DNA from: Escherichia coli
GTDB taxonomy: Bacteria > Pseudomonadota > Gammaproteobacteria > Enterobacterales > Enterobacteriaceae
NCBI RefSeq assembly: GCF_024502345.1
Contig: NZ_JALDNN010000001.1
Reading direction: 5' to 3' (one strand)
DNA: 64,000 nt
Shown one piece after another: positions 51,101 through 64,000 of the stretch (position 1 is its first letter; every line of letters starts with the position of its first letter). The notes under the pieces are model-generated. The model ran no database searches, had not been told where the DNA came from, and saw nothing but the letters and a program-made list of their open reading frames with translations. A program made the position numbers and the translations under genes.

Positions 51101-53246
51101 ATCACTTCAAAAAATTGGGATGTGTTTCCCCAAATCATCTATATCTTCCCAGCCTTATGCACCAAAAATAACGGCGCAAATAGTTAACAGATAGAATATC
51201 TGGCAATTTATGTTCCACTTTCCAGGCTTGCCTGTAATCGGGGATAATAGAAATATGTTCCATCAATTTTTTAAGTTCCATTTTGTCCCCCTTAATTATG
51301 CAATGAGTATTTGATCATGTATAAGCAATGAAAAACAGCTTTAGGTAATAAGGAACACCTCAATTATTGAACATAAAATGCGAATTATTTAGTACAAAAA
51401 AAACAGCATTACGTGATTTTTCCCTGGGAGTACAGTGTGAAGTTTCCGGCATGGCGGGATGCGGATGGGTTTGAACTGGGGTGAATAGGCACTACATGTC
51501 TACATTTTCCCGGTCACCAACCCCTCAATCTTATGAACTTAACCTCGGCTCACCGTTTTCGATTCCATCCAATAAATGACCCGGTTGGATGTGGGCTGAT
51601 CGCCAACAACTTTGCCATCTGCAGAGATTAGCTTCAGCTCTTTATTAGCCTCATCACCGAAGTAAATCATGCGGTAGCGAAAATAACCGCCCCAGGGTTC
51701 ACGTCCACCCAGCGAACTTTGCATAAACCAGGCGCGGGAGTCGTGAACCTGGTCATCATAGAGGGCCAGTAATTCAGCGCATGGCTGAGTACGCGTTCCC
51801 GTTCCCAGTGAATCAATAAAAAATTGTGGATAGAGTCCGTCTCCCATAGCCTTAATTTGCTGATATTCTTTTGCTTCATCATCGCCATTAATCAGATACA
51901 CCGGATATTTAGGAATGACATCCACAAGAATCTGAATGGCTTTCTCCATGACGCTGCCGTTAATATCGCGCGTCCATCCTTTATAATCGCTCTGAAATTC
52001 TCGGGCTGCCTCTCGCAACTGATACTGAGCATTGGTTGGGTCAAGGATAGGAATGCCCTGATTACTTTCATCAAGTGTGCCATTCCCTTTCTGCTTGTTC
52101 GCCCGCTCTTTTTCAATATTTTCCATTTGTTCTTTACGCGCTTTAGCCTCTTTATCAAGTCCATCTTTATCCAGCTGTGGCGCCTTAATATAAAAAGGTT
52201 GCACAAGAAGGCTGTTATTCGCATAGCGACCGATACGCCAGGCGGTGATCCAGCCGATCTGATCGCTAATTGCGCTTTCAAGAACCTGGGCAAGTTGATA
52301 GGAGTGATAACCTTCCCTCGTATCAATCATTTCTTCTGTACCCTGCAAGGTGGTGTTCAGCAGCGTTTGTCGCCAGATGTTGAAGCGTTTTGTTAATGAA
52401 TTAGCAATCGTAAATTCCTTTACGCTAGAAGGACTCATAATTCGCAGAGGCGACACACCTTTTATTAATGGAGTAACAAATTTAGAATAAACAGCAAGTG
52501 GTGCTCCTGAATCAAATGCAGCAAGATACATATCATGCAGTGCTATCTGAGAAAGAATTTCGCCTGAGTCACCACAGGACTTCCCCTGATCGCGAACGGG
52601 ATAGCCACCACCGACATCAGAGTGCATCCCCGGATAGATAATTTCCGTCTGGACGACGGATTGAATCCAGCGGAAAGCACAGCCGCTGCTCATGCGCGGC
52701 AACGAAGTGGCGGCAGCATTTAATCAGGCCGGGAAACTGCCTCTCATCAGGGAGTTGCTGAGTACTATCGGCCCATCCCATATGACCGGCAGCGCCCGGT
52801 AAAACATGCGCCGCCCCCACAGAAGCTACGGTATCCAGCAGCCCCAAAAACTCAATACTGACAGCTAACCCGGCCAGCATCACCTGTTGCTCCTGCGGGC
52901 AAGCTAACTGAGTCAACCAGTTAACAAAAGTTCGTGCTTCCGCTGCGCCACGGGAAAATCCGTAGATAAACAGCTTTACGTTTAGCAGGCGCGGACTGGC
53001 TTGCTCTAACAGTCCCTGTAATTTTTCCAGGTAGGGGTTAATCACATTGCGACGATTCACTTCACCAGTCATAGGCCAGGGAGCGCGCATAAGAGGAATG
53101 TGCTCTTTTGCCACATTATCATCCAGTCGCTTATGGGAAGGGTCAATGGAATAGTTCAGGGCATCCACGAGGCGTAATAATGCCCAATTAATTCGATCTT
53201 CACCACCAGTAGCGAACTCCAGCCCGCTGTTGCTGTAATCCATTTC

Positions 53247-54303
53247 GGCTTTGTTGAATAAATCGAACTTTTGCTGAGTTGAAGGATCAGATCACGTATC
53301 TTCCCGACAACGCAGACCGTTCCGTGGCAAAGCAAAAGTTCAAAATCACCAACTGGCCCACCTACAATAAAGCCCTCATCAACCGTGGCTCCATAACTTT
53401 CTGGCTGGATGATGAAGCTATTCAGGCCTGGTATGAGTCAGCAACACCTTCTTCACGAGGCAGACCTCAGCGCTATTCTGACCTTGCCATCACGACTGTG
53501 CTGGTCATTAAACGCGTATTCAGGCTGACCCTGCGCGCTGCGCAGGGCTTTATTGATTCCATTTTTTCTCTGATGAACGTTCCGCTACGCTGCCCGGATT
53601 ACAGCTGTGTCAGCAGGCGGGCAAAGTCGGTTAATGTCAGTTTCAAAACGCCCACCCGGGGTGAAATCGCACACCTGGTAATTGATTCCACCGGGCTGAA
53701 GGTCTTCGGTGAAGGCGAGTGGAAAGTCAAAAAGCATGGCCAGGAACGCCGCCGTATCTGGCGTAAGCTGCATCTCGCCGTTGACAGTAAAACACATGAA
53801 ATCATCTGCGCTGACCTGTCGCTGAACAACGTTACGGACTCAGAGGCCTTCCCCGGGTTAATCCGGCAAACCCACCGGAAAATCAGGTCAGCCGCCGCCG
53901 ATGGCGCTTACGATACCCGGCTATGTCACGATGAACTGCGGCGTAAGAAAATCAGCGCGCTTATCCCTCCCCGAAAAGGTGCGGGTTACTGGCCCGGTGA
54001 ATATGCAGACCGTAACCGTGCAGTGGCTAATCAGCGAATGACCGGGAGTAATGCGCGGTGGAAATGGACAACAGATTACAACCGTCGCTCGATAGCGGAA
54101 ACGGCGATGTACCGGGTAAAACAGCTGTTCGGGGGTTCACTGACACTGCGTGACTACGATGGTCAGGTTGCAGAGGCTATGGCCCTGGTACGAGCGCTGA
54201 ACAAAATGACGAAAGCAGGTATGCCTGAAAGCGTGCGTATTGCCTGAAAACACAACCCGCTACGGGGGAGACTTACCCGAAATCTGATTTATTCAACAAA
54301 GCC
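53247..54303 (+). mobile_element. IS903-group element copy C, 9-bp TSD ATCCATTTC
   Basis: Terminal IRs at 53247..53264 and 54286..54303; ATCCATTTC at 53238..53246 and 54304..54312. Confidence 0.92.
53279..54247 (+). CDS. IS903-group transposase (322 aa), identical to copies A and B
   Basis: Identical translation. Confidence 0.9.
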   Translation: MKDQITYLPDNADRSVAKQKFKITNWPTYNKALINRGSITFWLDDEAIQAWYESATPSSRGRPQRYSDLAITTVLVIKRVFRLTLRAAQGFIDSIFSLMNVPLRCPDYSCVSRRAKSVNVSFKTPTRGEIAHLVIDSTGLKVFGEGEWKVKKHGQERRRIWRKLHLAVDSKTHEIICADLSLNNVTDSEAFPGLIRQTHRKIRSAAADGAYDTRLCHDELRRKKISALIPPRKGAGYWPGEYADRNRAVANQRMTGSNARWKWTTDYNRRSIAETAMYRVKQLFGGSLTLRDYDGQVAEAMALVRALNKMTKAGMPESVRIA

Positions 54304-54659
54304 ATCCATTTCACCTATCTTGGGAAATGGTGTGCCTACACCCGGTATATAGTAGTTAAAATATCCCTGTTCTTCTGCGTTCTGATAGGTCGTATGAAAC
54401 AGTTTGGCAATATTGGTTGGGTGTCCAGGAGTGTCATTATATTCATTATTATTTGTACCATCAAAAAACAGACTAATATGCAGACTTTGATTACACGTAA
54501 AGCCAATTCTAAATCCAGCCTGTTTACTACAGTTGGTTTTGTGCTCTTCTGTTTTATTGATTTGTTTTAGGTAGTTCGCGTTTACCTGCGCTTCAGATAA
54601 TATTAATCGCCCATCTTCAGGGAACAACGGGGGGGCATAACACGGAAAAGCCAGACCAC

Positions 54660-55202
54660 TTATTTTGCTGGACATGTTGCAGGTTCCTTCATCTCGCGGG
54701 GTTCTTTGATAGGATAATTCGGTGTGCCATAGCCCTCGCAGACGGTTGTCACTTTAATCTGATTACACGGCAGAAAATGAACGGTCAGGCCACAACGTTC
54801 AGCGCCGTATTCCGGGATGTCAACAATTACTTTATATTTTTGATAATTTGCAGCATGTTTAGCATAAGCATCTTCTTCATAGCCAAAACCTTCTTTTTTC
54901 ATTGCAATAGGTTCAAGGGGGTTCGGGTCTACTTCCCACTCGATCCGGGCTTTTAATCCAGAATGCCACTTCTTTGGTAACATTATGCAGCAATATCCAC
55001 CGCCCAAACCATGGACCCGATAACCATTTACGGTGAACCAATTAATACTGATACCTTTAATATGATTTATTGCCCGGAGATCACCAGCAGTATAATCGTC
55101 GTAATTAGCTGCTGAGCAACCCGAAATCACCATCAAAATTAACACCAGACAGCCTTTAACTACTTTTGTTATATTCATTCCATTTCTTATTTTGCTGGAC
55201 AT
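54660..55202 (-). CDS. putative lipoprotein (lipobox ISGCSA), possibly effector-associated (immunity or chaperone-like)
   Basis: Signal peptide with lipobox Cys; immediately upstream of the Tle1-like gene; shares the MSSKI start and about 20 bp with it. Confidence 0.45.
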   Translation of the reverse strand: MSSKIRNGMNITKVVKGCLVLILMVISGCSAANYDDYTAGDLRAINHIKGISINWFTVNGYRVHGLGGGYCCIMLPKKWHSGLKARIEWEVDPNPLEPIAMKKEGFGYEEDAYAKHAANYQKYKVIVDIPEYGAERCGLTVHFLPCNQIKVTTVCEGYGTPNYPIKEPREMKEPATCPAK

Positions 55203-56138
55203 GTTGCTGGTTCTTTTACTTTGAGAGATTTTAATTGATGGGTATTGTTTCTACGACAATAAAGTTTTGACAAAGAAGCAAATAAAATGCATATCTTTCG
55301 ATTGTCACACATTGGAATATCGACAGAGCATTGATGATATTACGCAAAATATATTGCAGCCAAGTGAACTGACATTACGATCGAACACAAATGCAACATG
55401 ATGGATACTACCATTACATGTCGAGCTTGATTTTCCGTTTATTTCACGATTATCTCTTGATATTAACAGCTACGGACTTTTAAACAGATAAATCTCCCCG
55501 TACATCACCACAATATTATCCTTCGAAGTCCCGCAAAGCTCCGAAATATTTCGCGTCATTGGCCCTGAAAGCAATATCAAGACAGTGGGCAAAATAGCTT
55601 TCCTGACTGAGTTCACTGTGGGATGCAAATAAAGTTTCATCCTAACCCTAAAAACAGAGAGAAACGTCGCGCGCTCTCCTATTCATAAAAAATCCCTTTT
55701 ATATCAGTATGTTGTGAGCACTTACACCCGAGACTGGATCGTTTTGCCTTTCATGGGAGAATGATTAAGGGCGCTAAAGTATCATCCTAATTTTCGCCCA
55801 GGCTCGAAAAATACGGTAAATGGTGAAAATAAAGATTCATCCTTTTCCGATGTTGCCCGTTCCAACACGTAAGCAGTCAGTCAGAAAAAACACATAGATC
55901 CAATCCCTAGCGAGCATTGAGCTCTCTCATCCGTGCCAACTGCTCCAACCCTTGGACGCCCTAAATGCTTACCCAAAAAAATCAACACCTTCTTTTAAAA
56001 ACACAATCAAAAATGACACCCTTATATCCATTTAACCTAAACAGCCTTCCCCCCACTGCACTAGCTAGGGCTCGTAGTTCGGCGCAAGGCTGAAGTCGCT
56101 TGGCTGCTTCGCTGTGCAGATCCATGACCCACTTTCCA

Positions 56139-57302
56139 TCAAACTCCCGGTTGTAGTTCCACAAGCATCTCGCGAGTCTTGCCGGCCCGCTCCACTAACA
56201 AGACCACAACATCTCCAACGTTCTTGTCGTCTAGCCGGGCCTGTAATGTGGTGACGTCGTCGACGGCGATACCGTCGATGCTGATAACGCGATCGCCGGG
56301 CACGATGCCGCCTGCGGTGACCTCGACGCCGACGAGCCCGGCCCTGTGCGCCGCCGAGCCCGGCGTCACGCGCAATACGAATACGCCCTTACTGCCGGTC
56401 AGCGCCTGCAGACGCGCGTTGAGCTGCTCATCCACCTCGATGCCCAGCGCCGGACGGATGTACTTGCCGGTCTTTATGAGTTGCGGCACCACGCGCATGA
56501 CGGTATCGACCGGCACCGCAAAGCCGATGCCGGCCGAGGCGCCAGACGGACTGTAGATGGCGGTATTGATGCCGATCAGCCGCCCAGCCGAATCGAGCAG
56601 CGGGCCACCGGAATTGCCGGGGTTGATAGCGGCGTCGGTCTGGATCAGGTGGTCAATGGCCGGGCCACTGGCGTCGCCGGAAAGGGTGCGGTCAAGCGCC
56701 GAGACGATGCCGGTGGTGAGCGTCCAGTCGAGCCCGAAGGGATTGCCAATGGCAAAGACCTTTTGCCCCACCTTGAGATCGGCACTGGTGCCCACCGGCA
56801 CCGCCGGCGGGCGCTTGAAGCCGACGCCAATCTTGAGTACCGCGATGTCGTGCGCAGGACTAGCGCCAACGAGCGCAGCCTGATAATCGCGACCGTCGGC
56901 CAGTTTGACCGTGGCAGACGATGCCCCCTGGATCACGTGGAAGTTGGTCACCACGTGGCCGGCATCGTCCCAGATGAAGCCGGAGCCGGTGCCGCGCGGC
57001 ACGGAAAAGACATTGCGCGACCAGACGTGACGCACTAGTTGTGCCGTGGTGATGTAAACCACCGACCCGCGCGATTTCTCGAACAGCTCGATGGTGGTTT
57101 TTTCGTCGGCGGCCAGGTCGCCGCGCGGCGTCACCGTGCGCTCCTGCGTTTCGTGGGGACTGAACCAGGCTTCGATGGCGGGCAGGAACTGCCACAGCAG
57201 CATGAGTGCGGCGATGCAGCCAGTGATGACGAGCCAGCGCCGGATGAAGCGGTCCGGCGCCGGGCGGCTGTAGGGGTCGGGGTAGGTCACGTCATTCTCC
57301 AT
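56139..57302 (-). CDS. HtrA/DegP-family serine protease with PDZ domain (high-GC)
   Basis: Trypsin-like motifs ...TNFHVI..., ...GNSGGPL...; C-terminal PDZ-like region. Confidence 0.8.
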   Translation of the reverse strand: MENDVTYPDPYSRPAPDRFIRRWLVITGCIAALMLLWQFLPAIEAWFSPHETQERTVTPRGDLAADEKTTIELFEKSRGSVVYITTAQLVRHVWSRNVFSVPRGTGSGFIWDDAGHVVTNFHVIQGASSATVKLADGRDYQAALVGASPAHDIAVLKIGVGFKRPPAVPVGTSADLKVGQKVFAIGNPFGLDWTLTTGIVSALDRTLSGDASGPAIDHLIQTDAAINPGNSGGPLLDSAGRLIGINTAIYSPSGASAGIGFAVPVDTVMRVVPQLIKTGKYIRPALGIEVDEQLNARLQALTGSKGVFVLRVTPGSAAHRAGLVGVEVTAGGIVPGDRVISIDGIAVDDVTTLQARLDDKNVGDVVVLLVERAGKTREMLVELQPGV

Positions 57303-57309
57303 GTTGAAA

Positions 57310-58299
57310 TCAGCGCCAAAGGCCGCCGGTGCGCCAGCGTGGCGGACGTGGTGATACGGTCACCTCGGGGACGAAACGGGCCGATGGAAACGGCGGCATC
57401 GCGGGCGGCGGAGCAAGTTCCAGCAAGCGCTCAATGCGTTCAGCCGTCGCCGGATGCGTGCGCAACCAGGAGGGTTCCGGATTGCCCCATCCGGGCAGCA
57501 GCCAGGCGCGCCAGGAGCGGCTCACCCGCTCGATCTTGGCGAGCGCCGAGGCCAGCCCGTGCGGGTCGCCGGTCAATTCGGCAGCGAGCCGGTCGGCGTC
57601 GAATTCGCGCACCCTGGACAAGCCCAACTGAGCCAGCAAGGCCAGCTGTGGCGCGACCGCCAGTAGAAGCAACGCGGGCCAATTGACTTCCGCGACTCCA
57701 AGCAGCAGCGCTGGCAAGCTGAGCACGATCGCAAGCTGCCCCAGCAGGGCCAGCAGATGGGTCAGCCGGCTGATGGAATCGGCCAGGCCCATGACACGCA
57801 AATCCTCGTTCGCAATATGCGCGATTTCGTGGCCGAGCACGCCGGTCAACTCGCGGGGCGTGAGGCTACGCAGCAGGCCGTCGGTCAGCGCGATGGCCGC
57901 GTGATGCTTCGAACCGGTGGCGAAGGCGTTGACGACCCCGCTGGGCACGTAGTGCGGTACCGGCACGGCAGGCAGCCCGGCCCGCGCCGCCAGTTCGCGC
58001 AACACAGCCCAAAGATCGGGCGCTTCATCCGGGTACAGGGGGCGTGCGCCATACAGCCGCAAGGTCAGTCCGGAGGCGGCCGCCGGTTCGAGCAGCAGGG
58101 TGAACCCCGCGGCCGCAAGCGCCAGCCACAGCCCGCCGTCACCCAACAGCAGGCTGCCAGCGACGGCGGCAATCCCGAGCAGGGTCAGCACCAACAGCGC
58201 GGTTTGCAGGCGATTGAGCCAGCGATGCCGCGCGCCGACATCCTGCGCGTGGCGCAGATCACGACTGATCATCTGAGCGTTCCCCGGCGGTCCGGTCAT
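57310..58299 (-). CDS. M48-family zinc metalloprotease (HtpX-like)
   Basis: HEIAH zinc-binding motif in GHEIAHIANED; TM segments. Confidence 0.75.
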   Translation of the reverse strand: MTGPPGNAQMISRDLRHAQDVGARHRWLNRLQTALLVLTLLGIAAVAGSLLLGDGGLWLALAAAGFTLLLEPAAASGLTLRLYGARPLYPDEAPDLWAVLRELAARAGLPAVPVPHYVPSGVVNAFATGSKHHAAIALTDGLLRSLTPRELTGVLGHEIAHIANEDLRVMGLADSISRLTHLLALLGQLAIVLSLPALLLGVAEVNWPALLLLAVAPQLALLAQLGLSRVREFDADRLAAELTGDPHGLASALAKIERVSRSWRAWLLPGWGNPEPSWLRTHPATAERIERLLELAPPPAMPPFPSARFVPEVTVSPRPPRWRTGGLWR

Positions 58300-58762
58300 C
58301 GCGCTCGCGCAGCAGCCAGTAAGTCACCCCGAGCGCCAGCGTAGCACCTGCGAGCGCGGCGATCTTGCCGGGGCTCGCCTCGGGGTCGAGGATCACGAAC
58401 TTGCGCGCCAGCGCGATCAGGCCGATGAGGATCACCGTCTTGACCTGGATGATGCTGTCCCGACGCAGCGCCACGCGCACGATGGAATGCTTGAATTCCA
58501 TGGCGATGAGCAGCGTCATGATCATGGCGAACACGGTCTGGAAGACCTTGTGATCAAGCGGATTGAACGCGTCGAGGATCAGCAGCGTGAAGACAATGGA
58601 CATGAGCTGGAGCAGCGACACCACGATGATCACGGCGATCACCGCAGACAGCACGAGCGCGATGACCTGCTCGAAGCGCTCGTAGAACGTCATCACGGCC
58701 CATTGGGCGCGAAAAGTTTTCGTCAGCGTAGGTTGCTTTTCATTCATCGCCATTTCCCTCAA
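58259..58762 (-). CDS. PsiE-like phosphate-starvation-inducible membrane protein (start uncertain)
   Basis: Small polytopic membrane protein resembling PsiE. Confidence 0.55.
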   Translation of the reverse strand: MREMAMNEKQPTLTKTFRAQWAVMTFYERFEQVIALVLSAVIAVIIVVSLLQLMSIVFTLLILDAFNPLDHKVFQTVFAMIMTLLIAMEFKHSIVRVALRRDSIIQVKTVILIGLIALARKFVILDPEASPGKIAALAGATLALGVTYWLLRERDDRTAGERSDDQS

Positions 58763-59610
58763 TTTACATTGGCAACCATAACTTGGTTGCGCCCTTGTCT
58801 TTTTGCCTGGTAGAGCGCGCTGTCCGCCTGCTGCATCACCTGCTCGGAAGAGTTTAAGCGGACGTCGAGGGGAGCCACCCCCATGCTGGCGCTATAGCTG
58901 ATCGACACCTCTCCACACACCAGCGCTGTCGCCGCAACGTCCTGACGAAATCGCTCCGCCCATACTTGGGCGTCTTCTATCGATGCCGCTTCCAACAACA
59001 CAGCGAATTCCTCCCCCCCCCCAATCCGTGCAGCCATGTCGGTTGCGCGAACATGTTCCCTCAACCGTGAAGCAAAGTGCTTGAGCACCTCATCGCCGCA
59101 TCCGTGCCCATAGGTATCATTGATGCGCTTGAAGTGATCGATATCGCAGAGCACAAGTGCTGCTTGTATCTCCGGGCTGCGTTTGAGGCGCGCCCATTCC
59201 AGCTGTAATCGTTCGTTAAAAGCCCGCCGGTTCGACAAGCCGGTCAAGGGGTCGGTGATCGCCATGCGCAGCAACCGCTGCTCCATTTCCTTGCGAGAAG
59301 AGATGTCGAGCAGAGTGCCCACCATCAATTGCCTGCCCGTGTCACCCAGCCAACGACCGCGATCCAGCACCCAAATCCAAACGCCGGATCGATGACGAAC
59401 GCGGTACTCGCACTCCAATCGCTCCGACGGATTTTCTTGGTAAGCGCGCACCTTTGCCAGAACGACCGGTAAATCCTCCGGATGAATACGCGCTTGCCAT
59501 GCGGCATGGGTGGCGCCAATCTCCTCGTCGGAGGTCAAGCCGAACATCGCCAGACTGCGGGCAGAAAGCCTGAAGCTGTCGGTGGCAAGATCCCACTCCC
59601 AGAATCCCAA
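58759..59610 (-). CDS. PAS-GGDEF diguanylate cyclase
   Basis: GGEEF active-site motif (RIGGGEEF) and N-terminal PAS-like region. Confidence 0.8.
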   Translation of the reverse strand: MGFWEWDLATDSFRLSARSLAMFGLTSDEEIGATHAAWQARIHPEDLPVVLAKVRAYQENPSERLECEYRVRHRSGVWIWVLDRGRWLGDTGRQLMVGTLLDISSRKEMEQRLLRMAITDPLTGLSNRRAFNERLQLEWARLKRSPEIQAALVLCDIDHFKRINDTYGHGCGDEVLKHFASRLREHVRATDMAARIGGGEEFAVLLEAASIEDAQVWAERFRQDVAATALVCGEVSISYSASMGVAPLDVRLNSSEQVMQQADSALYQAKRQGRNQVMVANVN

Positions 59611-59779
59611 CTCTGCGCCTTCCAGGGCGATGGCGATCCGTTCGTTGTCGTCGATTTTCGCTTGTTGGCGATGCTTCAGCTCGTCACGCCTGTGGCGATT
59701 GGTACGAGCAAAACGCCATAACGCAACCCCATGCCAACATTGGCAAGTAGCGACACCATCAGCCAGATGGTCGGCCCGT

Positions 59780-61498
59780 TCATGGTCTATCCCCGCCTGA
59801 CTGACTGAGTGCCTGCCGTAATTCCTCGATCCGGTGGTCGACTTGGTCGGCGTTGATGCCCAACATCAACAGTACCTGCTCGGCCAGTCCCAGTCCCGCA
59901 GCCAGGTACAACGGGTACAGTCTGACATTGGGCAGATTACGCAAAAGCTGGGCATCCGTTACGCGCTCAGTGGCCACCACCACGGACAAGCTCAGGCGGC
60001 GGTCGAGAACCGCCTGAGCGATACGCAGGGCCGTCTGCGGACGGGCAAACGTCAGCACCACCAGGCGGGCATGGGCCAATCCGGCGGCGGCCAGGGTGTC
60101 GAGCCGACTGGCATCGCCATACGACACCGGCGCCCCCATAGCACGCCCCGCTTCGACCCGTTGGCGGTCCGATTCCAGCAGCAAATGCGGTATGCCTGCC
60201 AGGCGCAGCGTTCGGCTCAGCAGCAGCCCGACGTCATCCGCCCCACAGATGATCACATGGTCGCGCAACGACCGCGCCCGCTCGGCGACTTCGCCTTCTT
60301 CGGCCTGCGGTGGCTGACCGAGTGCGCCCGAGCGGCTGAAAGCCCGCGCCCATCGGTCATGGTGTCGGATCAGGAGCGGTGCCAACCCCATGCTCAACAC
60401 CAGCGCCACCAGCATCGGTTGCACCATGGTGGCGGCGATCAGGTGCTGCTGCATGACCATGCCCAGGAGCAGCAGCGCAAACTCGCCGCCATGACCCAGC
60501 ACGATGCCTGCGCGCCAGGCGTCGAGCGCCGACAGGCGGGTTGCGCGCAGCGCCAGAAAGTTCAGCCCCATCTTGAGAGGCACCAAGGCCAACAGCCAAC
60601 CCAGTACCGCCAGCGGTGCGGCCACGATCTGCGCGGTGTCCAGCTGCAGGCCAATGGTCACGAAGAACAGGCCCGACAGCACATCACGAAAGGGCTTGAG
60701 GTGGCTTTCCATGTGGTGCCGGAAGTCGCTCTCGCCCAGGACCATGCCGGCGAGAAAGGCCCCCAGGGCGGCGGATACGCCGACGGCGTGTGCAGCAGCG
60801 GCTGCCGCCACGACCACGCACAAGGAGACCAGCACGAAGGATTCTTCGTGGCCCTGCCGCGCCACCCAGCCCAGCAGGCCATGCAACAGACGACGCGAGG
60901 CAACCGCCGCTGCCGCGAACAACACCAGCACGCCCAACACTTCGAGCAGCACGCTCTCGATCTTCGGCGAGTCGCCGCGCGCCCAGATCGCCAGCAGGGC
61001 CAGCAGGGGCACGCTGGCCAGGTCCTGAAAGACCAGCACGGCGATGGCACTGCGGCCGTGGCGGGTGGTGAGCTCGCCTTGGTCGGCCAGCTGTCGGCTG
61101 ACCAGCGCCGTGGACGACATGGCCGCTGCGGCGCCGAGCAGTGCAGCGCTCTGAGCTGGCTGACCCAACCCGATCAGCACCAGGGTCAGTGGCGCGGCCA
61201 CGACGACCATCTGCAAGCTGCCGGACGCCAGTACGGTCTTGCGAGTGAGCCAGAAGTGCCCCAGCGAGAATTCCAGTCCGACCATGAACAGCAGCAGGGC
61301 CACACCCAGTTCGGATATGAAAGTCAACGCCTCTCCCGGCGCGATCACACCGCTGACCGAGGGGCCCAGCAAGGCGCCGACGGCGAGGTAACCCAGCAAG
61401 GCGGGTACTCTGAACGCCGCCGTCGCCACCACCGAGAGGCTGCACGCCGCCAGCAGGATCAGGGTAGTGCCGAGCAAATCCTGCGGATTCCACGCCAT
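59780..61498 (-). CDS. CPA2-family monovalent cation:proton antiporter with C-terminal RCK/TrkA-N domain (KefB/KefC-like)
   Basis: 12-TM N-terminal domain plus Rossmann-like ...VIICGADDVG... Confidence 0.8.
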   Translation of the reverse strand: MAWNPQDLLGTTLILLAACSLSVVATAAFRVPALLGYLAVGALLGPSVSGVIAPGEALTFISELGVALLLFMVGLEFSLGHFWLTRKTVLASGSLQMVVVAAPLTLVLIGLGQPAQSAALLGAAAAMSSTALVSRQLADQGELTTRHGRSAIAVLVFQDLASVPLLALLAIWARGDSPKIESVLLEVLGVLVLFAAAAVASRRLLHGLLGWVARQGHEESFVLVSLCVVVAAAAAAHAVGVSAALGAFLAGMVLGESDFRHHMESHLKPFRDVLSGLFFVTIGLQLDTAQIVAAPLAVLGWLLALVPLKMGLNFLALRATRLSALDAWRAGIVLGHGGEFALLLLGMVMQQHLIAATMVQPMLVALVLSMGLAPLLIRHHDRWARAFSRSGALGQPPQAEEGEVAERARSLRDHVIICGADDVGLLLSRTLRLAGIPHLLLESDRQRVEAGRAMGAPVSYGDASRLDTLAAAGLAHARLVVLTFARPQTALRIAQAVLDRRLSLSVVVATERVTDAQLLRNLPNVRLYPLYLAAGLGLAEQVLLMLGINADQVDHRIEELRQALSQSGGDRP

Positions 61499-61586
61499 TC
61501 GGACACTCAGCCCACGCTGATCCGGACACCTGTTCCACGGCCATTCGGACAGGCAGTCGGAGCGCAGCGACGCAGGGGTTGCATTG

Positions 61587-62342
61587 TTAGTCTGAGGTGC
61601 CCGGTGTCGTCAATTTCTTCACCCGCTTTCTCATCGATTCGCCCTTGAGGTTGATCCGATAAGCGTTGTGCACCAGGCGGTCGAGGATGGCATCGGCCAG
61701 GGTTGGATCGCCGATCAGTTCGTGCCAGTTGTCCACGGGCATTTGGCTGGTCACGAGGGTCGAGCGCTGGCCGTAGCGGTCGTCCAGTAGCTCCAGCATG
61801 TCGCGGCGCTGTTCGGCGGTGAACGGCGCCAGGCCCCAGTCGTCGAGGATCAGCAGGTCGGTCTTGGCGTAGCTGCTCATCAGCTTGGCGAAGCGCCCGT
61901 CGCCGTGGGCTAGGCCCAACTCTTCCAACAGGCGCGGCAAGCGCAGGTAACGCACGCTGTAGCCCTCTCGGCAGGCCTGGTGTGCCAGGGCGCAGGCCAG
62001 CCAGGTTTTACCCACGCCAGTCGGACCGTTGATGATCAGGTTGAGTCCGTCGCGCAGCCACTGGCCGCTACCCAGTTGCAGGATCAAGCCCTTGTCCAGC
62101 CCGCGCGGGGCACGGTAGTCGATGTCTTCGAGGCAGGCGCTGTGCTTGAGCCGGGCCTGGCGCAGGCGGCTGCTGAGGCGCTTGTCGTCGCGTTCGGTCA
62201 GTTCGCGGTCGACCAGCAGGCCGAGGCGTTCCACGAAGCTCAAGCTGTCGATGTCCGGGGTTTTCAGTTGCTCGGCGAGTGCCTTGAGCATGCCGGTCAG
62301 GCGCAGGGTCTGGAGCTTGTCCAGGGTCGGATGGGGCAGCAT
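61587..62342 (-). CDS. istB: IS21-family helper ATPase IstB
   Basis: Walker A NGPTGVGKT; start taken at MLPHPTLDKL. Confidence 0.85.
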   Translation of the reverse strand: MLPHPTLDKLQTLRLTGMLKALAEQLKTPDIDSLSFVERLGLLVDRELTERDDKRLSSRLRQARLKHSACLEDIDYRAPRGLDKGLILQLGSGQWLRDGLNLIINGPTGVGKTWLACALAHQACREGYSVRYLRLPRLLEELGLAHGDGRFAKLMSSYAKTDLLILDDWGLAPFTAEQRRDMLELLDDRYGQRSTLVTSQMPVDNWHELIGDPTLADAILDRLVHNAYRINLKGESMRKRVKKLTTPGTSD

Positions 62343-62359
62343 GGTGGGATTCCTTGTGT

Positions 62360-63889
62360 TTAGTGGTAGTAGCCGGGGCCGCGCAGGTTGGCGTGGTCGT
62401 CCGGCAGCAGGGGCAGGTGCTGCTGGGCCAGCGGCAGATTTTCCAGCCCCTGGCGCAGGATCGATTCGAGGCTCTTGTAGCTGCACGCACCGAGGCTGAG
62501 GGCGCGACGGCAGGCCAACTCCAAGCACACTTCGCCATGGGTCTTGCCCAGGCGCAGGATGCCCAGGCAGGCCCGGTAGCCTTGGGTTGGGTGGATGCGC
62601 CGTTCGAGGATGTGGCTGATCACGCCGGCCGTGTTCGGCCCGGTCTGCTCAGCCCAGCGGATCAGCCGTTGTGGCGTCCACTCGGCGTGCTCGCGATGGC
62701 TCTTGGGCATGTGCTCGGCCTGTGTGCTGTGCCGGCCCTTGTGCGGTGAGCGAAGGTGGCTGGCCACCCGCTGATTGGCGTGGAAGCACTCCACCGTGCG
62801 CGCTGTCAGGCGTACTTCCAGTTGTTTCTTCACCAGTTGGTACGGCACCGAGTAGTAGTGCCCATCGACCTCGACGTGGTAGTCGATGTGCACCCGCGCC
62901 TTCTTCCACTCGGCATAGACGTAGGGCTGCTCCGGCAGTGGGCGCAGCGCTGGACGATCCAGGGCTTCGAAGGCCGAGTGCCGGGAGCCCGGCAGCTTGC
63001 GAAACGGTCGTCGGTTGAGCCGCTCCAGCAATAAGGCGATGGCGCTGTTGAGTTCGTCCAGGGAGAAGAACTGGCGGTTCCTCAGCGCGGCGAGGATCCA
63101 GCGCTCGACCACCTGCACGCCGACCTCGGCCTTAGCCTTGTCGCGCGGCTTACGCGCCCGCGCCGGCACCACCGCCACGCCATAGTGCTCGGCCAGATCG
63201 CGGTAGCTCGGGTTGATGTCCGGCTCGTAGCGATGGCTCTTACTCACCGCGCTTCGCAGGTTGTCCGGCACCACGATCTCCGGCACACCGCCGAGAAAGG
63301 AGAAGCAGCGGGCATGTGAGCCCAGCCAGTCAGGTAACTGCTGCGACCAGGTGGCTTCGGCGAAGGTGTAGCTGGATGCACCAAGCACCGCGACGAACAC
63401 CTGCGCCTGGCGGATCTCGCCGCTGTGGCGGTCGATCACCGGCACCGTCTGCCCGGCGTAGTCGACGAACAACTTCTCGCCAACGCGATGTTCCTGGCGC
63501 ATCACCACGTCCAGCTTGCCCTGCCAGGCTCGGTAGTGCTCGCAGAACCAGCTGTACTGAAAGCCTTTCGGCTGGCTCAGGCGATACTCCTGCCAGAGCA
63601 GCGCCAAGGTCACGCCCGGCCGGCGTAGCTCGGCGTGGATCATGGCCCAATCGGGCAGCGGTCGTTGCTCGGAGGGTACCGCCGCCGGTGGCGGGAACAG
63701 CTGCTGCTCCAACTCCGCATCGGACAACGAACAGGGCCAACTGAGGCCGCTGGCGGCAAAGCGACAGAGGTAATCACCGGCACTGCTGTGGCCTATGCCC
63801 AGACTGCGGGAGATCTTACGGACAGACAGCCCGCAATCGAACTTGAGGCGCAACACCTCACGGATTTTACGCATGGACAAACGCTCCAC
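62360..63889 (-). CDS. istA: IS21-family transposase IstA
   Basis: N-terminal HTH then DDE integrase core; sits directly upstream of istB. Confidence 0.85.
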   Translation of the reverse strand: MERLSMRKIREVLRLKFDCGLSVRKISRSLGIGHSSAGDYLCRFAASGLSWPCSLSDAELEQQLFPPPAAVPSEQRPLPDWAMIHAELRRPGVTLALLWQEYRLSQPKGFQYSWFCEHYRAWQGKLDVVMRQEHRVGEKLFVDYAGQTVPVIDRHSGEIRQAQVFVAVLGASSYTFAEATWSQQLPDWLGSHARCFSFLGGVPEIVVPDNLRSAVSKSHRYEPDINPSYRDLAEHYGVAVVPARARKPRDKAKAEVGVQVVERWILAALRNRQFFSLDELNSAIALLLERLNRRPFRKLPGSRHSAFEALDRPALRPLPEQPYVYAEWKKARVHIDYHVEVDGHYYSVPYQLVKKQLEVRLTARTVECFHANQRVASHLRSPHKGRHSTQAEHMPKSHREHAEWTPQRLIRWAEQTGPNTAGVISHILERRIHPTQGYRACLGILRLGKTHGEVCLELACRRALSLGACSYKSLESILRQGLENLPLAQQHLPLLPDDHANLRGPGYYH

Positions 63890-64000
63890 GACGACCTCTC
63901 TGCTTCGAAAAAGAGGTCGATGGTAGTGAATAAATCCTGCGTAGCTGCCTGCCTGGAAAGTGTCCGGATGGCCGTGGAATCGGTGTCCGGATGCTCGTGG

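Follow-up and report, generated by a model that had tools for sequence, protein, structure and literature searches.

The left end of Tn7 (Tn7-L) reportedly contains three TnsB-binding sites, which are said to have been described by Arciszewska and Craig in 1991. Tn7 has an 8-bp tip and 22-bp sites, four of which overlap in the right end while the three in the left end are spaced by 42 and 31 bp, and this site spacing is the feature that tells the Tn7 ends apart (Kaczmarska et al. 2022, PMC9308760). Tn7-like elements in general have arrays of ~20-bp subterminal repeats (Benler et al. 2021, PMC8649781). Arrays of TnsB sites are a textbook signature of Tn7-family ends, and the kind of feature described below is already known. 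It has also been published that the heat-resistance locus is associated with Tn7 or Tn7-like elements. A Tn7-like transposon with tdcA and the LHR genes was reported in P. aeruginosa CF39S (Almblad et al., PMC8012707), and the association is also mentioned in a 2021 paper (PMC8290217), in both cases in passing. In the literature that could be searched, no description of the ends, the TnsB sites, the target duplications or the attachment site of the tLST element was found.

The window analyzed here is a stretch of 64,000 nucleotides of Escherichia coli DNA. The initial annotation had pointed to three spaced copies of a motif near 55624, 55771 and 55825, which it judged to be non-random and attributed to a regulator or a recombinase. 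We are nearly certain that the three copies are TnsB transposase-binding sites in the left end of a Tn7-family (TnsABCDE) transposon with the heat-resistance locus (tLST) as its cargo. The assignment of the repeats to TnsB is based on homology and architecture, and the sites are accordingly called putative or TnsB-type in Table 1.

The three motif sequences quoted by the initial annotation are present in the window, and its start positions are right to within 1–2 bases. In the window, the core TAAAGWWTCATCCT is matched at exactly three places, 55630–55643, 55775–55788 and 55830–55843, all of them on the + strand. The expectation by chance is 0.00 matches (100 dinucleotide-preserving shuffles), so that the frequency check against background bears out the claim that the motif is non-random. 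When up to two mismatches to TAAAGWWTCATCCT were allowed, just three extra scattered matches appeared in the window, which is the chance level. A repeat finder lengthens the motif copies to 16–20 nt. A 20-bp weight matrix was then made solely from the sites that related elements of other genomes have in their right ends. Among the ~128,000 positions on both strands of the window, it ranks the starts of the three sites (L1, L3 and L2) first, second and joint third, and L2 has the same score as a single chance position in another part of the window. The three sites have the same orientation and a length of ~20 bp each. They are separated by gaps of 125 and 35 bp and lie at offsets 9, 154 and 209 of the left end.

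Table 1. Features at the left end of the transposon and in its surroundings (positions in the window)
Feature	Start	End	Strand	Evidence or remark
tla1 3′ remnant (last 32 codons and stop, two bases of the split codon)	55516	55616	-	ELSQESYF...DFEG* matches the C-terminus of intact Tla1
TTCAC, presumed left copy of the 5-bp target-site duplication	55612	55616	+	inferred from the duplications of other copies
8-bp left-end tip TGTGGGAT, outer boundary of the element	55617	55624	+	similarity to tla1 ends and that to other left ends begins
Non-coding left-end segment, from the tip to the stop codon of the first cargo gene	55617	56138	+	
Transposon portion in the window (left end, degP, htpX, psiE, GGDEF gene, kefB, IS21-family insertion)	55617	64000	+	
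Site L1, terminal putative TnsB-type repeat GCAAATAAAGTTTCATCCTA	55625	55644	+	30.4 bits, rank 1
Site L2, middle repeat with degenerate 5′ half GGCGCTAAAGTATCATCCTA	55770	55789	+	11.7 bits, joint rank 3
Site L3, innermost repeat GAAAATAAAGATTCATCCTT	55825	55844	+	23.1 bits, rank 2
First cargo gene, S1C (DegP-like) serine protease	56139	57302	-	S1C family annotation in the 99.5% identical E. coli 81 element
IS21-family element (istB 61587–62528, istA 62360–63889), between kefB and trx-GI	61485	64000	-	

The boundary of the element was located by comparison with other genomes. A megablast search with positions 55203–56138 against 5,426 complete E. coli genomes split the query into two parts. Positions 55203–55618 matched a T6SS locus, in a gene annotated as DUF4123 or "toxin Tle1 chaperone Tla1", while positions 55617–56138 matched a different sequence. 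The second part was matched in chromosomes as well as plasmids, where its neighbors are unrelated genes, and every match starts at the same base. Sixteen E. coli genomes, as well as plasmids of Klebsiella, E. coli and Acinetobacter, carry this part with 99–100% identity, and the full left end is kept in only 16 of the 5,426 complete E. coli genomes. In a four-way alignment, the window tracks intact tla1 up to ...GAGTTCAC and, from TGTGGGATGC onward, the sequence of E. coli 81 and Pantoea. The intact comparator is the 256-residue Tla1 of E. coli 23CRST027. The transposon is thus inserted in tla1, 32 codons ahead of its stop. By megablast, the exact tla1::transposon junction is in none of the 5,426 complete E. 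coli genomes. An Rfam scan of positions 55000–56400 (E ≤ 1) gave zero matches, and a promoter and terminator scan revealed no terminator-like and no promoter-like site within 55617–56138. The placement of the motifs in an intergenic region upstream of the lipoprotein and Tle1 genes was misleading, since all three copies are inside the foreign element; they only seem to be upstream of tli1 and tle1 because the transposon inserted in tla1.

Complete copies of the element, ~29 kb in length, are present in E. coli strains 81, G3/10 and ABWA45, and the G3/10 copy has 29,080 bp and contains tnsABCDE. The order in the complete copies is right end, tnsA, tnsB, tnsC, tnsD, tnsE, LHR genes and left end, although tnsC is missing and tnsA is split in the ABWA45 annotation. 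In E. coli 81, the genes on the far side of the heat-resistance locus are tnsA, a gene for a Mu-type transposase (tnsB), one for an ATPase (tnsC), tnsD and tnsE. Pfam searches with the Tns proteins detected the N- and C-terminal domains of TnsA, the Mu-transposase C-terminal domain, AAA_22/TniB, TniQ and TnsD, and TnsE_C. TnsB of the element aligns over its full length with Tn7 TnsB (PDB 7PIK; E = 5e-180). The identities to the canonical Tn7 proteins are 41% for TnsA, 46% (45.7%) for TnsB, 40% for TnsC, 35% for TnsD and 24% for TnsE. By tblastn, tns genes were found in eleven loci, five of which have all five genes, and none were found within the 64-kb window. From the left tip, positions 55617–64000 of the window are 99.95% identical to the G3/10 element over 8,384 bp, IS21 insertion included. 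Given this match to a 29,080-bp copy, the window carries the first 8.4 kb of such an element. By the same colinearity, the tns genes (tnsEDCBA) and the right end should lie ~21 kb past the window edge (the remaining ~20.7 kb).

The right end in E. coli 81 is located ~120 bp upstream of tnsA and reads TGTGGGAT GCAAATAAAGGTTCATCCGT ATAAATAAAGTATCATCCGT ATAAATAAAGTTTCATTCTG. It consists of the tip and three abutting 20-bp copies of the motif (offsets 9, 29 and 49), and it is inverted relative to the left end. Neither the left end nor the right end contains sites on the opposite strand. The 18-mer TGTGGGATGCAAATAAAG opens both ends of the complete copies in E. coli 81, G3/10, ABWA45 and Pantoea. 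Perfect 5-bp target duplications flank the copies in E. coli, namely GTTGC in strain 81 and CCAGT and AAATG in G3/10 and ABWA45. The duplications of two Pantoea copies are GGGCC and TGGGC, and that of a copy in a Pseudomonadales MAG is CGTGT. In total, 5-bp duplications were found for six full-length copies and for four of the five mini-elements described below. In Pantoea sp. GD03673, the right tip is located 25 bp past the glmS stop codon, and pstS follows beyond the left end (loci L014, 7852–7878, and L013, 1–1486); this arrangement is that of the classical attTn7.

The flanking sequence of the element in P. agglomerans HJS002 (L010/L011) is nearly the same as that of the GD03673 element. 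The three E. coli copies and the copy in the window occupy unrelated sites: one is in an integrase gene, one in tla1 and two are elsewhere. A truncated integrase gene beside the E. coli 81 copy had suggested integrase arm-type sites, which were discarded, because the fragments are those of the target gene split by the insertion.

Relatives were collected by scanning one genome per species for the 18-mer tip, and the 42 loci obtained were parsed by a script. Eleven of them, from Chlorobiaceae, Limosilactobacillus, Bacteroidia and others, have no sites behind the tip and are chance matches; this number is in line with the about nine 18-mer matches estimated by chance from the collection size. 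An identical left end (offsets 9, 154 and 209) was found in Pantoea agglomerans, Pantoea sp., Pseudomonas saxonica, P. toyotomiensis and a Pseudomonadales MAG. Many Pseudomonas and relatives have packed right ends (offsets 9, 29 and 49), which are followed by a tnsA homologue wherever the sequence sufficed. Two other left-end lineages (L021/L031 and L045) have unrelated spacers and three sites in the same orientation, the middle one being weak. Therefore, the sites are conserved and the spacers are not. The conservation check suggested with the initial annotation thus had a positive outcome, as E. coli, Pantoea and Pseudomonas all keep the motif at either end of the element.

The scan also revealed MITE-like mini-elements of ~330 bp that are present in multiple copies. 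They open with the 18-mer tip of the transposon in the window and consist of a left end with three sites (offsets 9, 75 and 140) and a right end with two sites. They are found in P. alcaligenes NBRC 14159 (L021, 6614–6941; L022, 3549–3876) and in P. oleovorans DSM 1045 (L031, 662–988; L032, 4188–4515; L034, 8834–9160). Their 5-bp target duplications are perfect in four of five cases (CCCGC, GAAGT, ACCGC and TGCGG). A resident TnsABC machinery presumably mobilizes the mini-elements in trans.

A related Tn7-like left end, which starts with TGTGGGAGGAAAATAAAGTGTCATCCTA... and has offsets 9, 133 and 188, was observed at L045 (3864–4075) and at L048 and L049 (around 6001–6071). It is 83% identical to positions 55775–55845 of the window and gave matches to 645 plasmid and 185 E. 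coli records. This end sits in a widespread resistance module of aac(3)-IId, a gene for a tmrB-like ATPase, DUF3883 and ISCfr1, and it adjoins IS26, or IS1008 in one Acinetobacter plasmid. Its position suggests that the gentamicin-resistance module began as the cargo of a sister transposon.

The G+C content rises to 59–68% to the right of 56139, where the open reading frames encode a DegP-like protease, an HtpX-like protease, PsiE, a GGDEF protein, a Kef-type antiporter and IstB/IstA of the IS21 family. The 99.5% identical stretch of E. coli 81 is annotated as the heat-resistance locus, with clpK, hsp20-GI, yfdX1/2, hdeD-GI, trx-GI and others. Colinearity with the E. coli 81 element ends at 61484. 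The IS21-family insertion is at the same place in G3/10 and ABWA45 and is not present in strain 81. The GGDEF gene (58759–59610, - strand, 283 aa) is located between psiE and kefB, matching the position of the GGDEF gene in the heat-resistance locus. It is intact in the window and in G3/10 and is split in strains 81 and ABWA45. This gene may correspond to TdcA, the thermosensory diguanylate cyclase of the P. aeruginosa Tn7-like transposon (PMC8012707).

On the other side of the boundary, an IS5-type transposase gene (53279–54247, + strand) splits the gene for the Tle1 phospholipase effector, and the flanking open reading frames are at 54289–54675, 52617–53243 and 51539–52702 (- strand). With the transposon in tla1 and the IS5-type gene in tle1, the T6SS effector module is doubly inactivated. 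As tla1 is disrupted and IS5 splits the leftover tli1/tle1 module, what remains is a decayed T6SS effector locus. The center of tli1 (54828–55183) gave no blastn alignment to tli1a of E. coli 23CRST027, while both of its flanks are 96–99% identical. An unalignable center between such flanks points to the replacement of an immunity allele.

The position of the motifs, 420–640 bp upstream of the tli1 start (55202), and the spaced repeats that are typical of some regulators could suggest operators for tli1, the lipoprotein immunity gene, and tle1 of the T6SS island. However, the uninterrupted copy of the same T6SS locus lacks the motif, by which this explanation is refuted. The motifs lie beyond the tla1 remnant, in foreign DNA that has unrelated neighbors in many genomes and plasmids, and the same repeats are found upstream of tnsA at the opposite end of the element. 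The promoter-like matches upstream of tli1 are all confined to the native part, at 55221–55375. Operators are therefore extremely improbable; the closeness of the motifs to tli1 and tle1 is accidental, and they have no role in the expression of these genes. The suggestion of regulator or recombinase sites holds in that the repeats are sites for a DNA-rearranging protein, here a DDE transposase (TnsB of a Tn7-family element), but it fails for a regulator, and it fails likewise for the arm-type sites of a tyrosine recombinase and the iterons of a replication origin. At first sight, direct repeats that are spaced and lie close to the edge of an acquired island could pass for arm-type sites or iterons. 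The element, however, has no integrase or rep gene, its own genes being tnsABCDE, and its inverted ends, which start with TGT and are flanked by varied 5-bp duplications, are unlike att sites with a shared core. We give these two kinds of sites hardly any credence.

The ends of a Tn5053/Tn402-type (TniABQR) transposon were considered too, as this family also has arrays of ~19-bp end repeats and 5-bp duplications (PMC8649781), and the TnsC and TnsD homologues of the element match Pfam TniB and TniQ, respectively. On the other hand, the element encodes TnsE and a TnsA with both Pfam domains, and no resolvase is annotated in the complete copies. Its attachment site is at glmS with the right end proximal to the gene, and its TnsB aligns with Tn7 TnsB throughout. 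These traits belong to Tn7 proper, while the Tn5053/Tn402 family has no TnsA and transposes replicatively, with resolution by TniR at a res site, so that a Tn5053/Tn402-type element is very unlikely. It was also considered whether the motifs could be repeated translation starts, that is, fossil 5′ ends of duplicated small genes. On the minus strand, the motif AGGATGAWWCTTTA (AGGATGA) resembles a Shine-Dalgarno sequence with an ATG codon, and an open reading frame of 56 aa (55470–55640) begins at the ATG inside L1; L1 would encode MKLYLH and L3 MNLYFH. However, the frame at L2 hits a stop after three codons, and at the right end the motif copies abut with a 20-bp period, where no start of an open reading frame is possible. 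The 56-aa frame extends from the element into the tla1 remnant, and its sequence therefore depends on the insertion site; its counterpart in Pantoea diverges after MKLYLHPT. Translation starts thus have a negligible probability, and we return to the TnsB sites of a Tn7-family left end.

By analogy with Tn7, TnsB protomers would bind to L1–L3 and to the right-end array and pair both ends. TnsB would cut and join the 3′ ends at the terminal ...ACA/TGT, and TnsA would cut the 5′ ends. The asymmetry between the spaced and the packed end would fix the orientation of insertion, and the putative TnsB sites may add to target immunity. Because tla1 is a non-attachment site, the insertion in the window probably occurred via the TnsE pathway; the alternative is a later rearrangement. 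On the + strand, the right junction is expected to consist of tnsE-D-C-B-A in reversed orientation, GGATGAACCTTTATTTGCATCCCACA, TTCAC, TGACTGCTTTCTCC... and the rest of tla1. It is possible, although we lean against it, that the 29-kb TnsABCDE element is a still-active vehicle of the tLST/LHR among Pseudomonas, Pantoea, Klebsiella and E. coli, which targets glmS in some hosts, inserts at random in the TnsE manner in others, as in the T6SS gene here, and has a left-end function beyond that of Tn7. The 125-bp first spacer and the weak middle site (all three lineages examined) would then be functional, for example as a host-factor site or in an extended target immunity. If the element is such an active vehicle, its ends, duplications and attachment site make the mobility of the tLST directly testable.

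The repeats place the boundary of a 29-kb transposon at exactly 55617, and the heat-resistance island reached this genome as the cargo of a Tn7-type element. Heat and chlorine resistance are traits of the tLST/LHR locus that the transposon carries. For the tLST in food safety and water treatment, a concrete and testable route of spread, which the searchable literature mentions only in passing, is provided by the precise ends, the 5-bp duplications and the glmS insertion in Pantoea. Since the feature is of a known kind and the left end is so rare among the complete E. coli genomes, the gain is a precise annotation and not a new system.

For the comparison with Tn7, both ends were read from Tn7 at glmS, and its right-end sequence was found with 100% identity in 100+ E. 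coli genomes. Tn7 at glmS has the tip TGTGGGCG, packed right-end sites such as GACAATAAAGTCTTAAACT, three spaced GACAAAATAGNTGGGAACT sites in the left end and the target duplication GCGGG. Like Tn7, the present element has an 8-bp tip that starts with TGTGGG, three direct sites (~20–22 bp) with unrelated spacers at the cargo-side end and packed sites at the tnsA-proximal end, giving the same asymmetry of a spaced left and a packed right end. The two elements also share the 5-bp duplications, tnsABCDE and, in the Pantoea copy, the glmS attachment site with the right end adjoining glmS. The stretch AATAAAGT is common to the sites in the window and the right-end sites of Tn7, whereas the left-end sites of Tn7 have AAAATAGT at this position. 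The inner half-site is TCATCCT here, in contrast to TAAACT in the right end and GGGAACT in the left end of Tn7. The left spacers are 125 and 35 bp, compared with 42 and 31 bp, the first being much longer, and the right end has three clear sites with a strict 20-bp period instead of four overlapping ones. The proteins have diverged as well, as the identities given above for TnsB, TnsD and TnsE (46%, 35% and 24%) indicate, and the cargo is the heat-resistance locus, whereas that of Tn7 is a class 2 integron.

By its published description, the transposon of P. aeruginosa CF39S is alike in combining transposition genes of the Tn7 type with an LHR/tLST cargo that contains a GGDEF (tdcA-like) gene. 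The arrays in the window also resemble the computationally predicted ~20-bp subterminal inverted repeats of Benler et al. 2021 (PMC8649781), which are likewise intergenic and delimit 6,549 Tn7-like elements in that study.
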